Source of the DNA: a plasmid
Sequence record: NZ_CP106961.1
Strand: one strand, 5' to 3'
Length of the DNA: 64,000 bases
Program-made: the position numbers and the translations under genes
Shown: piece by piece, positions 47,505-53,452 of the stretch
Numbering within the stretch: position 1 is the stretch's first letter
Layout: each line of letters begins with the position of its first letter
Notes under the pieces: model-generated
Databases searched by the model: none
What the model saw: only the letters and a program-made list of their open reading frames with translations
Told to the model about the DNA's origin: nothing

Positions 47505-49184
47505 CTAACGCGGAGAAGGTGGCTTCCAGTCGTTACGTGGCTCATGTGAGATGTATGCCGGTGTATTCTGCTCCGCCTCTGCGTTACGGAAAAACGCTTC
47601 GCACTGCTCACGCATTCTGTCCACATCCGGTCGGCTGATACGGACCTGATCCTCTTCTCCCGCACGGTACACATTATACCAGCCCACCATCTCAGCAAGC
47701 GCCTGGTTAAACTGTATGTCATTCCCTTCCGGAGCAAAGCCCATCTTCGGGTCCCTGGCGAAAAGCACAGGGGATACCCGGTTTAGCTCACGCTGAAGGG
47801 ACGCAAAATCACTGCCGTTTCTGAACACCACCCGATCGCCGTAATCGGTACAGACGTGCTGCCCGGTATCAGTATCGCTGAACCGGATGCTGCCGTTTTT
47901 CTGTAAGGCAGGCTTAAGGCCTGGCATATTGTAGTACAGCGGTGCGCTTCCCGGTTCGCAAAGCACCACGCAACGCTGGTTGGACGTCGACTGCGTATTA
48001 TCATGACGACGATCCCGGTAATCCCATCCCCTCAGCTGCGATATCGCAGCCCTGTCACCTTTCAGCGCTTCCACTTCAACCCACTGCCGGTAAGACGGCG
48101 GATACCATTTCCCCTGCCCGATAAGCTCCAGTCGTTCCGCTTTCACACTCTCTTTCAGCGCAATGAGTGCCTGCATGCGCTGCAGCTCCGCAATGTGATA
48201 ATGCAGCTTCCGCACGAGAGGATCGCGTTGCTGTGCGCGGATACGTGCCTTACGCATCCTGCACTCGTCATGTATCGCCTGCCAGCGTTCCCGGTTGTGT
48301 AAGTCCGGACGCTGCCAGTTCGCGCGCCAGGCTGAATAGCGGGCCTTCAGATCGTCGCGCGCTGCAGCGCGTGCTTCGCGACGCTGACGACGCAGTTCAG
48401 GATCACGTTTCATGCCCGGGATATCGCGGTCGCTGACGGCAAGCTCAGGGTTATAACGGCTCACCGGCGCAACGCGTTCAAAAATATCTGACGGCACACG
48501 AACAAACGCACCGGCATGCGGCTCTGCACGTACAAGCGTCAGATCAGGATGGACATGGCTTGCTTTAACCGGCGTCTGGTCGTGGTTATATGCGTCCATA
48601 ACCACCAGGCCCTGCTTCTCACGCATCAACAGTAATCCCTGACGCGCCAGCAGTTCATGACCGCGCTCCCAGGTGAAATTCCCGCTGCTGATAAGCGCCT
48701 CTAAATCCTGACGGCAGTGTGATACCGCATAGCTCCACAGGCTTTCTTTGTCGGAGAAAATCTCACGTTTAAGCGCGCCCTGCGGACCCGAACCGGTGCG
48801 CAGTTTTGCCCATTCCCGATCGCTGACCGGGCGGGCTTTCAGTCCTCCGCCGGCAAAACGTTCCGCCGGAGGGACCTGGCGGAAAATGTCATGAGGAACA
48901 GGCTGCCACCCACCTTCATAGCTGTTCATGACCGCTTTCGTCAGGGCTGGCCAGACACGTTCAGCGCGTACGGGCGTACGCGTCTGATCGTAACCGTCAC
49001 AGATAACAAGGCAGTCATGCTGCTCTTTCAGGTACAGACCGGAATGTGCCAGAAGCGTATGAACAGCCTGCATGGTGCGTTGCGCCGGGTCCTGATAAAG
49101 TGCGATAAGTGGCGCGCGCAGACGGGAGACAGCGTACTCATTCAGCGTCTCCGTTTCGGTCATGCGTCCAGGGCGGGACAGCAT
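47505..49184 (-). CDS. Hypothetical 559-aa protein with a ~100-aa internal tandem duplication, probably 5'-truncated by IS911; possibly the C-terminal region of a conjugation/mobilisation-associated protein
   Basis: Internal repeats were read from the sequence ([23 protein letters not shown]… / [23 protein letters not shown]…). The ATG lies 8-10 bp from the IS911 truncation point, with no SD upstream. Confidence 0.45.
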
Positions 49185-49193
49185 GGTAACGGT

Positions 49194-49914
<721 letters not shown>

Positions 49915-49995
49915 ACCACAACAATGATTCTCCTCAAGCCATTTATCAAATCGTTCAGCTTCAATATCCAGCAACTGGTCTTTCACGCTTCCCAT
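49915..49995 (-). pseudogene. 5' end (27 codons, MGSVKDQLLDIEAERFDKWLEENHCCG…) of a gene interrupted by IS911
   Basis: The minus-strand ORF starts at 49995 and runs straight into the IS911 terminus. Confidence 0.4.
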
Positions 49996-50069: not shown

Positions 50070-50393
50070 CTATAAAAGATCCATATACCATGCCGCTTCA
50101 TCAGGGCAGCTCAAATCGAGCTCAAACGCTCCTTCAGGAAGCGTACGGGATTTATAACCGCCGTCAGAATACTGAAAGGCCCACTCTTTCATATCCGGAG
50201 CATCGAGGCGGCTGGCCATTTCCTCGTATATCCCATTCTCCTCATCGAGAAGCACAAGAAGAGTTTCCCCCTGCGTATTTATCGTACGGTATAGCCATAC
50301 TTTCTGGCAGCCATAACCTGAAAGCATTTCCAGAATTGAAGAAGGTGAAACGCTGTTGCCCTGATTGATGTATGTCGTTGTGTTACTCATAAT
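50070..50393 (-). CDS. Hypothetical 107-aa protein (MSNTTTYINQGNSV…), possibly immunity-like
   Basis: ORF with an AAGGAA RBS. A downstream partner gene is disrupted by IS911. The family assignment is speculative. Confidence 0.4.
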   Translation of the reverse strand: MMSNTTTYINQGNSVSPSSILEMLSGYGCQKVWLYRTINTQGETLLVLLDEENGIYEEMASRLDAPDMKEWAFQYSDGGYKSRTLPEGAFELDLSCPDEAAWYMDLL

Positions 50394-51202
50394 TGATTTC
50401 CTTATCGTAAGCTTTCTACTAATTACTGTATTTATCATCATCTGCGTAACATTCCATTGTCCGCCTAAAATGATTAGCAAGATAACAGTACCATCCCGCA
50501 ATTACCGGATGCACCAATCCCGAAATTCCGAAAAATCGATAATAGCAGGGTTTCCGGAAGCGAGAAGGAAAGCTGTATCAGTACAGCCCCGACAGGCGGG
50601 TCAGGAATTGGGAGGGAGGAGTGTTACTAACTTATTATAATATAGCACATATTTAATCTTTTTTTCAAAAATATGCGCAGAAAATCGCCGTGATCCGGGA
50701 CTGCCTTTTTTCGGATCCCGGATGACAAAACGCATGATATTTCCTGTAAATGCAATTATTCATAACATTTATATTCATATATGTTAAAAGTGCGAAATTA
50801 GCATCAGTTGTTGGTTATTATTAAGATTTCAGCAACAAACCGTATCCCACCCGCTTCGTTAAAAAAACCGAAGGTCATCAGAAGCGCTCACTGATCGTTC
50901 CGGGCTGAGACGGTGGCAGCGTCACGGGTAATGTCTCTATTTTATTGGTCGTGAGGAAGGCCGGATAATGGCCAAACTAAGAAGCCATAGCATTGGGGGC
51001 AGCCTGCTGATCTGGTATGATCGAGCAGAGGCTCATCTCAATGAGCAATCCCCGCAACAAATTTTTTCGGGGTGCAACAGACCCTTTAGTGTCCAGGCCT
51101 GAAAAAAAAGAAAGCACGGTCTCTGAGAGACTACGGTCCTTACGCAACCATACCGGTTAGCGAGCTTTATATTTTCATTATGACTATCTGTATAACAGGG
51201 GA

Positions 51203-52117
51203 ATGAATGTGATTAAAAAAATATGCGAAGTGATTGATGGAGAGTATGTCTGTGACATTGATATCAGTGTGGAAGAATGGAAAACTTTATTAACAAATGA
51301 TAAAGTTTTTGACACAAAAAGTATTGCAGCGTTAAAAAAATGGTTTATTGAGCCAAATCATTCCTGCACATGCTTCGATATTGGTAAGAAGTACGACCTG
51401 CACAGCATGAGTGCTAATGGAGTCATAAACGGACTGGGTGGCAGAGTTCAAAAAGAACTTGGTAGATTCGAGGTTAAAGGTGTCGGAAATATCGCATCCG
51501 GTACAAAATTCATTACCGTAATGAAGAGTAAAGAAATCGGCGGAAAACCCAAAAGAAACTTATGGACAATTCGTGAGGAACTTGTTCAGGCAATTAACGA
51601 ACTGGATTTTTTTGGTACAACAGAAATGGCCAGCAGTGAGTATTACTCTGACGATGAGTTGATCAATGCCATAGAGAAAAGTAATATCTTTGACAACGTT
51701 CAGACGTTTGAATATACAGGGGAAGCCAAACCAAAGAAAAATGCAATAGAAGTAAAAAATGGCCTCTCGTATCCCAGGAGTAAAGGCGTATCCCAAAATG
51801 CGCTGAATAAAGCAGGTTACAGATGTGAAGTCGATAGTGACCACCCAACATTCAGAAGGCGAAATTCATCCTTAAATTACACAGAACCTCATCACATTGT
51901 ACCTATGTCCAGGCAAGATGCTTTTGACACATCTCTTGATGTTGAAGAAAATATCATATCTCTGTGTTGCAATTGCCATAAACAAATTCACCTTGGTCAG
52001 GGTTATGAAGATATGCTGAAAGAAATATACACTGCGCGAAAAAGGTTATTAAAAAAAGTTGGTATTGATATATCACTGGAAAACTTGATTCTTTATTACA
52101 AAATGGAAAGTAAGTGA
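51203..52117 (+). CDS. McrA-like HNH endonuclease (putative modification-dependent/type IV restriction or defence nuclease) with a divergent ~230-aa N-terminal domain
   Basis: C-terminal motif YTEPHHIVPMS…ENIISLCCNCHKQIH…MLKEIY parallels E. coli McrA (YLEVHHVIPLS…NCVALCPNCHRELH…LIEMLY). The gene lies in an AT-rich island. An alternative GTG start is at 51209. Confidence 0.65.
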   Translation: MNVIKKICEVIDGEYVCDIDISVEEWKTLLTNDKVFDTKSIAALKKWFIEPNHSCTCFDIGKKYDLHSMSANGVINGLGGRVQKELGRFEVKGVGNIASGTKFITVMKSKEIGGKPKRNLWTIREELVQAINELDFFGTTEMASSEYYSDDELINAIEKSNIFDNVQTFEYTGEAKPKKNAIEVKNGLSYPRSKGVSQNALNKAGYRCEVDSDHPTFRRRNSSLNYTEPHHIVPMSRQDAFDTSLDVEENIISLCCNCHKQIHLGQGYEDMLKEIYTARKRLLKKVGIDISLENLILYYKMESK

Positions 52118-52524
52118 GATTCAAACGAGAGTGATACCTTCGTTTTATTGGTCGGGATGAACAGCAGATGATGTTTCCGGCAAGTATCGGGTCCAGAAAC
52201 TTTCTGTTAAAAAAGAGGTAAAAGTAGTCTTGAGCCCTGACTGCGAATTGCCATTGCGCATGACCAGAGAACAGGACGAACCCCTGCCAAACCCAGGCAT
52301 GAGAAACACCTTTAAAACATAGACTTAATTAAAATCAGCAATTCCCATCGAAATAATAAGCAAGCAGAATTGGCTCAGGTGAATTTCACTCGGTGCAGTG
52401 CATGCGTTGGGGGGGGTAAAAGGAAAAACCCGAAATGAATCGGGTTTTGATTAATTAACGATTAACAGGTTCCCGTGCCCGGGAACACTCTGACTGTACG
52501 CGCAATATATTATTTCCGCAATCA

Positions 52525-52875
52525 TTATTTTTGATTACCAAGCCATTTATTCATCTGCTCAATTTCACCTTTTTGAGCTTTAATGATGTCCTGCGCGAGC
52601 TTTCTCATTTCCGGATCTTTTCCGTATTTTAGCTCGGTCTCAGCCATTGCTATTGCCCCTTCATGGTGTGCTACCATGCCTTTCGCAAAAGCCTTGTCGG
52701 GATCGGACTCTTTTACAGCGGCCATCATTTTGTCATGCATACCTTTCATGCCGGACATATATTCCTGTGACGATGCCGATGAGGATATATCTGACATTTT
52801 CATTTCTGAATGTTCTGCGGAAATCGCTGGCAGGGAAAACATCAGTATAACAAAAAGCGAATTTGTGATTTTCAT
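52525..52875 (-). CDS. DUF305-family periplasmic protein (metal-resistance-associated)
   Basis: 116-aa ORF with a signal peptide and a His/Met-containing DUF305-like sequence (…AFAKGMVAHHEGAIAMAETELKYGKDPEMRKLAQDII). Confidence 0.65.
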   Translation of the reverse strand: MKITNSLFVILMFSLPAISAEHSEMKMSDISSSASSQEYMSGMKGMHDKMMAAVKESDPDKAFAKGMVAHHEGAIAMAETELKYGKDPEMRKLAQDIIKAQKGEIEQMNKWLGNQK

Positions 52876-52942
52876 ATAATAAACCCTTTCAGATGGTTAC
52901 CGGATAAGTTTAGCTGAGTCAGACAAAAAAGCCCCCTGAAGG

Positions 52943-52970
52943 GGGCAAAAAATAACAACATATCCGTATA
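52943..52970. terminator. Bidirectional terminator (aaaaaagccccctgaagggggcaaaaaat) downstream of silE
   Basis: Read directly. Confidence 0.6.
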
Positions 52971-53020
52971 AGGGACAATCTATCAAGGAAAGGGTAACCG
53001 CACGGAAACTTCAGTTGTCA

Positions 53021-53452
53021 TCAGCCCGCATTGATCATGCGGCGGTGTGCATCAGCCATAGCCTGATGGGGGCCGGACTGACCGTTATTCGTAAATTCAT
53101 GGGCAACAGCTGCTCTTTCATGTTCATTCATCGCCGCAAACGAAGTCGCCGGACGGGAAGCGTTAACGGTGCCAGTTCCCATCATCTTCTGATGACTTTC
53201 CGCCATTTTTTTATGTGCATCTGCTGAACCATTGTTCATGGTTTCATGAACAATAATAGCCTGTTCATGCTGATCCATACCGGCCATCCGTGGAGCTGCC
53301 CCCTGGATGGCGGCTGGAGTTGAAGAAGACTGCATCTGATGGGCCGGAGCCTGAGCATTATTGACACGCTCATGGATATTTACAGTTTCAGTGGCCCAGG
53401 CCGTAGAAATTAAGCTCAAACCTAACACTGATGCTAAGACGATATTTTTCAT
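53021..53452 (-). CDS. silE: Periplasmic silver-binding protein SilE
   Basis: The 143-aa ORF from MKNIVLASVLGL… is His/Met-rich and matches SilE. Confidence 0.9.
   Translation of the reverse strand: MKNIVLASVLGLSLISTAWATETVNIHERVNNAQAPAHQMQSSSTPAAIQGAAPRMAGMDQHEQAIIVHETMNNGSADAHKKMAESHQKMMGTGTVNASRPATSFAAMNEHERAAVAHEFTNNGQSGPHQAMADAHRRMINAG

Follow-up and report, generated by a model that had tools for sequence, protein, structure and literature searches.

The sil metal-resistance island of the plasmid record NZ_CP106961.1 is flanked at its silE edge by a gene whose product joins a predicted winged-helix domain from an unannotated family to a C-terminal McrA-type HNH nuclease domain. We consider this gene a candidate for a single-chain, modification-dependent (type IV) restriction endonuclease without methyltransferase, and think it probable that it is one. 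The stretch of plasmid DNA that was analysed, referred to here as the window, is 64,000 nucleotides long, and positions are given in its numbering. An original prediction made from the letters alone had already pointed to a type IV restriction or defence gene at this place, and this proposal is supported by the McrA-like nuclease domain, by the fusion of the same N-terminal domain (the reader) to McrB-type and other defence nucleases elsewhere, by the absence of an adjacent methyltransferase and of a phage homologue, and by purifying selection.

Sequence comparison and structure modelling both place the C-terminal domain in the HNH (beta-beta-alpha-Me) nuclease superfamily. Pfam profile PF01844 (HNH) is matched above its gathering score (27.5 bits against a cut-off of 21.4, E 3.4e-6), and the best match of the protein, and of its HNH domain, among solved structures is EcoKMcrA (PDB 6GHC, E 4.4e-6), with the catalytic motifs in register. 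The motif-by-motif parallel with Escherichia coli McrA that had been drawn from the sequence is borne out by HMMER, which aligns EPHHIVPMS (residues 226-234, counted like all residue numbers here from the GTG start), EENIISLCCNCHKQIH (246-261) and MLKEIY (269-274) residue by residue with LEVHHVIPLS...NCVALCPNCHRELH...LIEMLY of EcoKMcrA. Across 32 homologues, H228, H229, N248, H257 and H261 are at least 90% conserved, as are the putative zinc ligands C206, H212 and C253/C254/C256, and the strands (226-229, 249-252) and helix (254-262) predicted by AlphaFold2 are consistent with a beta-beta-alpha fold. The domain thus has the zinc-binding cysteines and the C-terminal helical tail of an EcoKMcrA-type HNH nuclease. 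The PADLOC search that the original prediction had proposed returned a type IV profile of McrA length, which aligns at positions 188-276 only, that is, with the HNH part.

The AlphaFold2 model, built with the 32 homologues, divides the protein into three parts: a defined N-domain (residues 1-135), a disordered linker and the HNH domain. The original prediction had described a domain of about 230 residues matching nothing recognised. The lack of recognisable relatives stands, as no Pfam family was found even when 62 diverse members of the N-domain family were each scanned at E<=1, but the region consists of a 135-residue domain and a linker with indels in the alignment and a predicted local distance difference test score (pLDDT) below 50 at residues 138-147 and 158-164. 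On its own, the N-domain is modelled with a pLDDT of 91.5 and a predicted template modelling score of 0.86, and its fold is confidently predicted to be a winged helix, most similar to those of sequence-specific regulators; this model rules out the SRA-, EVE-, PUA- or ASCH-like fold that had been suggested as a candidate. Residues E23, W24, L28, H51, Y62, N70, R86, F87, W119, R122, E124, L125 and A128 are conserved throughout the family. When a profile of the 62 N-domains was compared with solved structures, no PDB chain scored better than E 0.11 and no restriction enzyme was among those chains, so there is no detectable sequence kinship with the N-domain of McrA, the sulfur-binding domain of ScoMcrA and SprMcrA, or the winged helix of DpnI and HhiV4I.

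The proteins in which the reader occurs elsewhere bear on its function. A full HMMER scan of 1.84 billion representative proteins, using residues 1-170 as query, returned 219 proteins. Of these, 147 have 250 residues or more, and the domain is N-terminal in 130 of them; some proteins have an additional region without Pfam match ahead of it. In the 81 partners that were scanned, the Pfam families found were AAA_5 (48), HNH (17), HNH_2 (8), ResIII (5), NOV_C (4) and EVE (2). The AAA partners share the consensus GAPGxGKTY...MNxxDRS, which is the signature of McrB GTPases, and in 11 of 12 genome loci with such a fusion the next gene encodes McrC (Pfam McrBC, PF10117). These loci belong to a set of 35 retrieved with the reader, mostly from Bacteroidota, plus Clostridium and Neobacillus, whose flanking open reading frames (ORFs) include type I restriction-modification subunits and TIR and SEFIR domains. 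No DNA methyltransferase family recurs (two times or more) among 47 flanking ORFs, considering the 25 commonest of 57 families, and none adjoins the gene in the window or in the related plasmids inspected. This distribution of partners and neighbours (McrB with McrC, HNH, NOV_C, ResIII, EVE) suggests that the reader is an interchangeable specificity, or target-reading, module of type IV restriction systems. Partners were classed by motifs and direct scans, as single-linkage clustering of their C-termini merged everything; comparing the N-domain alignment profile with a word index of 5.8 billion proteins recovered fragments for the most part and told little about architecture.

Several of the less common architectures deserve mention in their own right. 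Three fusions (P0082, P0112, P0159) have the reader ahead of a full-length PD-T4-1-like module, which includes a NOV_C (DUF3883) nuclease (E as low as 3.6e-62). As PD-T4-1 was obtained in E. coli by functional selection for defence against T4 (PMC9519451), these fusions tie the reader to the family of an experimentally selected anti-T4 system; the text of that paper gives no domain detail for PD-T4-1. One protein of the search, P0088 (415 residues), carries two tandem reader copies ahead of its HNH domain, and P0065 (299 residues) combines the reader with a C-terminal region that matches neither HNH nor any Pfam or PADLOC profile. Stand-alone proteins of 135 residues consisting of the reader only (P0214, P0216, P0217, P0219; locus L041, 5001-5408) are 66-72% identical, and one of them has integrase fragments as neighbours and no HNH ORF following. 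These may be DNA-binding proteins in their own right, or remnants.

The protein is encoded in 1,389 of 72,556 PLSDB plasmids from Klebsiella (962), Escherichia, Enterobacter, Salmonella and Citrobacter, and 1,340 of these copies cover at least 80% of it at a single site. Close homologues (76-99% identity) are found in enterobacteria and Aeromonas, and full-length homologues at 60-63% identity in several Clostridium species and Neobacillus. Together with the low guanine-cytosine (GC) content of the gene, the latter suggest an origin in low-GC bacteria. Phage genomes contain no full-length relative: among 50,697 phage records there were five weak matches to the HNH domain only, and PHROG matches are likewise confined to this part. 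Since, in addition, the gene stands by itself, with copM on one side and unrelated DNA on the other, a homing endonuclease of a phage, intron or intein was rejected; kinship of the N-terminal domain with a group I intron homing endonuclease had been named as a possible refutation of the original prediction.

Comparison with the Klebsiella allele indicates that both domains are kept by strong purifying selection. The ratio of nonsynonymous to synonymous substitution rates (dN/dS) is 0.083 for the whole gene at a synonymous divergence (dS) of 1.33, with values of 0.044 for the reader (dS 1.32), 0.26 for the linker (dS 0.93) and 0.076 for the HNH domain (dS 1.59); copM and silE gave 0.128 (dS 0.49) and 0.110 (dS 0.44), respectively. 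The dS of the gene is therefore about three times that of its neighbours (51209-52117 against 52525-53452), which points to an earlier split, to recombination that exchanged alleles or to a mutation regime that differs.

DNA binding by the reader, dependence on modification, the nature of the mark, the geometry of cleavage and the role in defence are what we infer from these data. In the mechanism that we propose, the winged-helix module would bind DNA carrying a mark not made by the host, the flexible linker of about 40 residues would allow the HNH domain to reach DNA near the bound site, and this domain, with a putative one-metal beta-beta-alpha-Me site and structural zinc site, would nick or cut there. 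Action as a dimer or at two sites is probable by analogy with McrA, TagI and EcoWI. Host and plasmid DNA without the mark would be spared and incoming phage or plasmid DNA bearing it destroyed, and the gene, long resident at the silE edge of sil/pco, is moved with this island as a passenger. The enterobacteria that carry it are Dam+ and largely Dcm+. Since more than 1,300 plasmids have the ORF intact and under constraint, it is very unlikely that the mark is G6mATC and unlikely that it is C5mCWGG.

A number of observations weigh against this assignment. The immediate upstream context in the window consists of an insertion sequence (IS) stump and gene fragments, with no defence island; the chromosomal copy in E. 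coli ATCC 8739 (locus L003, 9012-9921) is a pseudogene, annotated as frameshifted with an internal stop; and a pure defence model explains the tight linkage to sil only by hitch-hiking. Single loci may have a methyltransferase, as the survey of neighbours covers the most frequent families. McrB-like GTPases also serve sequence-specific, methyltransferase-linked systems, of which LlaJI is an example, and PADLOC labels the AAA partners 'REase_II', so that fusion to McrB is by itself no proof of modification dependence. Such systems read unmodified sequence, and these two points, along with the similarity of the winged helix to sequence-specific regulators and the constant position at the very edge of the island, would suit a modification-independent, sequence- or structure-specific HNH nuclease or nickase serving the mobile element. 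The winged helix would then be an ordinary sequence reader, and the enzyme might attack rival plasmids and phages at a sequence that the host lacks, or provide a nick for recombination or spread of sil/pco. We find this unlikely, because the reader occurs mostly in pairs of McrB and McrC without a recurrent methyltransferase and also in Clostridium and Neobacillus chromosomes that have no sil island, because an unprotected stand-alone cutter would be toxic unless its site were missing from the genomes (about 5 Mb) of many genera, and because the gene neither has a full-length phage relative nor lies inside another gene. It is quite improbable, in our estimate, that the protein is instead an effector of the abortive-infection or toxin type, i.e. 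a non-specific HNH DNase that is inactive until a phage cue, with the winged helix as sensor or autorepressor. The fusions to PD-T4-1-like modules would be compatible with such a role, as would the TIR and KAP NTPase neighbours of the Klebsiella/Enterobacter variant and the relaxed activity with Mn2+ of HNH enzymes of this class (PMC7461809), but the reader is joined predominantly to McrBC restriction motors, whose action on DNA is direct, and no conserved antitoxin-like or partner ORF accompanies the gene. The small upstream ORFs were considered as a conserved antitoxin or controller and rejected, as their ATG is lost in the Klebsiella version.

The constant association with copM-silE raises the question of a function in metal homeostasis, for example as a metal-responsive DNA-binding regulator or nuclease of the sil/pco island. 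The gene adjoins DUF305/copM-silE in essentially every plasmid copy sampled, and about half of the plasmids with the copM-silE segment carry it (1,389 against 2,872 in PLSDB). The other half, however, do without it, it is convergent with copM and so does not share an operon with it, its catalytic HNH residues are conserved, and no metal genes lie near the Clostridium and Neobacillus homologues or the McrBC fusions; we therefore regard a metal-linked function as highly improbable. The same holds for a passively inherited relic, decaying or inactive: the E. coli ATCC 8739 pseudogene, fragments and the 135-residue N-domain products would agree with decay, but hardly the low dN/dS at a dS of 1.3, the near full length of almost all plasmid copies and the conservation of catalytic and zinc-binding residues. 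Finally, the 135-residue module may represent an undescribed family of modification readers with a target outside the characterised type IV repertoire, which may be a hypermodified phage base or methylation in a new context, and at the same time the position at the sil/pco edge may be functional; it could serve to exclude rival plasmids and phages from metal-stressed hosts or allow metal tuning through the HNH site. That both of these propositions hold together seems quite improbable to us.

The features of the locus are listed in the table below. The 304-codon ORF of the original prediction (51203-52117, + strand) is present as claimed, and we have corrected its start. Translation from GTG 51209 is likelier than from ATG 51203 because of the spacing from the AGGGGA motif, because the Klebsiella version has ATG at this codon, and because the equivalent methionine is the first residue in nearly all of 31 aligned homologues. 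The allele variants retain a GGGGA or GAGAG motif at the position of the ribosome-binding site, and the RefSeq annotation, "HNH endonuclease", starts at the GTG in many plasmids.

Table. Features of the gene and its surroundings in the window.
Feature	Position	Strand	Remarks
Winged-helix–HNH nuclease coding sequence	51209..52117	+	302 aa + stop; alternative ATG at 51203; RefSeq WP_007374408.1
N-terminal reader module, residues 1-135	51209..51613	+	Beta-hairpin and helix, then predicted winged-helix core
Flexible linker, residues ~136-175 (~40 aa)	51614..51733	+	Length and sequence variable
McrA-type HNH (beta-beta-alpha-Me) nuclease domain with helical tail	51734..52114	+	Key residues H228/H229, N248, H257, H261
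Shine-Dalgarno-like AGGGGA	51197..51202	+	6 nt before GTG 51209, abuts ATG 51203; read from sequence
5' leader co-inherited with the gene	50692..51208	+	Block common to many sil plasmids begins ~50692; homology to diverged Klebsiella/E. coli versions from ~50905
Palindrome GTCTCTGAGAGAC, 6+1+6 inverted repeat	51119..51131	.	Present, judged a chance feature
GC-rich hairpin, T-runs on both sides	52425..52448	-	In convergent intergenic space; terminator-like site from scan
DUF305/CopM-family metallochaperone gene	52525..52875	-	Convergent with the HNH gene; constant right-hand neighbour
Small hypothetical gene	~50070-50390	-	Between IS stump and low-GC islet

The gene had been described as part of a low-GC islet with a long AT-rich leader, wedged between an IS911 stump and the sil operon. 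Low GC is confirmed (37.2% for the ORF, with 34.7% at third codon positions, and 39.3% for 50640-52130, against 51.4% for the whole window), but the leader is AT-rich only in patches (42.7% GC overall, 49% at 50800-51100), and the islet has no sharp right edge, since DUF305-silE is also at about 42-43%. Both flanks are as described, except that a small hypothetical gene intervenes on the left. The stump (~49184-49925) is of the IS3 family and consists of 741 nt that are 99% identical to ISEc52, an IS911-like element annotated in E. coli genomes, with an intact orfA-like ORF (49540-49878) and a truncated orfB. On the right, DUF305/copM is followed by silE, silSR, silCFBA and silP. The hairpin in the convergent intergenic space is likely the terminator of DUF305/copM and possibly serves the HNH gene as well.

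Further to the left, an ORF of 559 codons (47505-49184, - strand, about 58% GC), which the PLSDB gene table does not list, extends to the border of the ISEc52-like stump. It is probably the remainder of a larger gene cut by the IS, possibly of the relaxase type. The annotation of the region ~24700-47000, comprising a mer operon, a lacIZY operon, a gene of PBECR2 nuclease fold with a hypothetical partner, and the conjugation genes trbG/trbI, shows a mosaic accessory region typical of Leclercia/Enterobacter IncFIB-type plasmids.

The implied separate insertion of the gene into this plasmid does not hold: the gene and about 300-500 bp of leader are an old, co-inherited edge of the sil island. Matches of related plasmids (H9-H25) begin at query position 293, corresponding to 50692, and rank sampling of the 1,793 matches to a junction query puts the share that has the HNH-DUF305 arrangement, at constant spacing, at about three quarters, which corresponds to essentially all carriers of the HNH gene. 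The arrangement also occurs in the chromosome of E. coli ATCC 8739, in a Klebsiella IncFIB/HI1B plasmid and in Enterobacter contigs. In this chromosome and in related E. coli the copy beside copM-silE is annotated as a pseudogene, and an IS4 element lies between copM and silE. The Klebsiella/Enterobacter allele is preceded by genes for a KAP-family NTPase (741 aa), a CAP12/PCTIR TIR-like protein (299 aa) and a small YuaX-like protein, and the Enterobacter loci additionally have an 893-aa SMC_N/AAA_23 protein upstream of the HNH gene (loci L042-L044, 1-7446, for Enterobacter; L004, 1675-4848, for Klebsiella). The window lacks this set, which resembles a small cluster of defence genes bordering the sil island.

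The 300 bp or so upstream of the HNH start (50905-51208) can be aligned across three diverged alleles, those of the window, E. coli ATCC 8739 and Klebsiella, at about 60-70% identity, with conserved blocks such as GCTGAGAC and CGGATAATGGCCA. This conservation is explained by no promoter, ORF or Rfam family, as the scan of the leader detected no convincing promoter, and comparison of the leader and the 3' spacer with Rfam, for structured RNAs and known small RNAs, gave sub-threshold noise only. The perfect 13-bp palindrome in the leader, to which the original prediction had drawn attention, exists but seems to have no meaning as a feature. The window contains 17 perfect palindromes of the 6+1+6 type, and 148 when loops of 0-4 nt are counted, and GTCTCTGAGAGAC is missing from the leader in Klebsiella and in E. 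coli ATCC 8739 and is not conserved in the alignment; frequency at chance level and non-conservation together indicate a chance occurrence. An operator or terminator at this place was rejected on the same grounds, the - strand terminator call of the scan being its same 5-bp stem.

If the enzyme is active, it would constitute a very widespread and unnoticed restriction barrier on plasmids that spread metal, antibiotic and virulence traits, and could influence the success of phages, including therapeutic ones, and of incoming plasmids in carrier hosts. In that case a reader that lacks annotation but serves many McrBC systems, chiefly of Bacteroidota and Bacillota, would gain a name and a function, and the modification-dependent enzymes used in epigenome mapping possibly a new specificity. 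If it is inactive or non-specific, it would merely be another 'HNH endonuclease' annotation.

The combination of a reader and an HNH domain is shared with McrA, TagI, EcoWI and SruGXI. EcoKMcrA, encoded by the e14 prophage of E. coli, differs in its 5mC-reading N-domain, which the protein described here does not have: similarity begins at about residue 188 only, and 6GHC is not among the 60 structural matches listed for the N-domain model. The first CxxC of its zinc site corresponds to C206-x5-H212 in our protein. Because the N-domain that defines the McrA family is absent, we do not consider the protein a member of it. Neither is it a phosphorothioate-dependent enzyme of the SBD-HNH kind (EcoWI, SprMcrA, ScoMcrA 5ZMM; PMC7461809, PMC6224610), since the sulfur-binding domain of those enzymes was not found.

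The closest architecture is that of the winged-helix fusion type IV enzymes of Helbrecht et al. 2024 (PMC11037411), which include the wH-HNH (winged helix-HNH) enzyme SruGXI, the PUA-wH-HNH enzymes HhiV4I and HtuIII, and DpnI. Like the stand-alone members of this class, which have 224-283 residues, our protein of 302 residues combines a winged helix and a restriction-type nuclease in one chain without a cognate methyltransferase. The same study describes NTD-wH-NTPase proteins, with a further N-terminal domain, paired with McrC; the McrB-type fusions of our reader with McrC as next gene resemble these pairs, and the reader proteins with an extra N-terminal region also recall them. The winged-helix fusions characterised there depend on Dam methylation (G6mATC) and are toxic in Dam+ E. 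coli, but the GATC motif is missing from about 90% of the fusions, and the authors argue that those that stand alone have to recognise a modification, as they would otherwise be toxic. To the extent that the supplements of that study are available as text, they have no entries from Klebsiella, Enterobacter or Clostridium. The profile of 62 N-domains detects no homology to the characterised winged-helix readers of 6mA, and the avoidance of Dam+ hosts expected of enzymes that read G6mATC is not seen for our gene, whose carriers are Dam+ enterobacterial genera. This points to a different specificity rather than to exclusion from the winged-helix fusion class.

McrBC systems are known to exchange their N-terminal specificity domains (PMC11090510), and our reader is the N-domain of many McrB-type GTPases followed by McrC. 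Unlike McrBC, the protein of the window has its reader joined directly to an NTP-independent HNH domain, not to a GTPase motor with a separate PD-(D/E)xK subunit. With PD-T4-1 (PMC9519451) the reader alone is shared, through the relatives in which it precedes a PD-T4-1-like module, and the protein itself has no PD-T4-1 similarity. The partners of the reader (48 of 81 of McrB type, with McrC next in 11 of 12 loci) thus suggest the combination that is typical of type IV systems, an interchangeable specificity domain and a nuclease without methyltransferase. A literature search found no mention of the RefSeq accessions or of an HNH gene adjoining sil. That type IV enzymes swap their readers is well known; what is new is an unannotated reader family that is joined to an McrA-type HNH domain.

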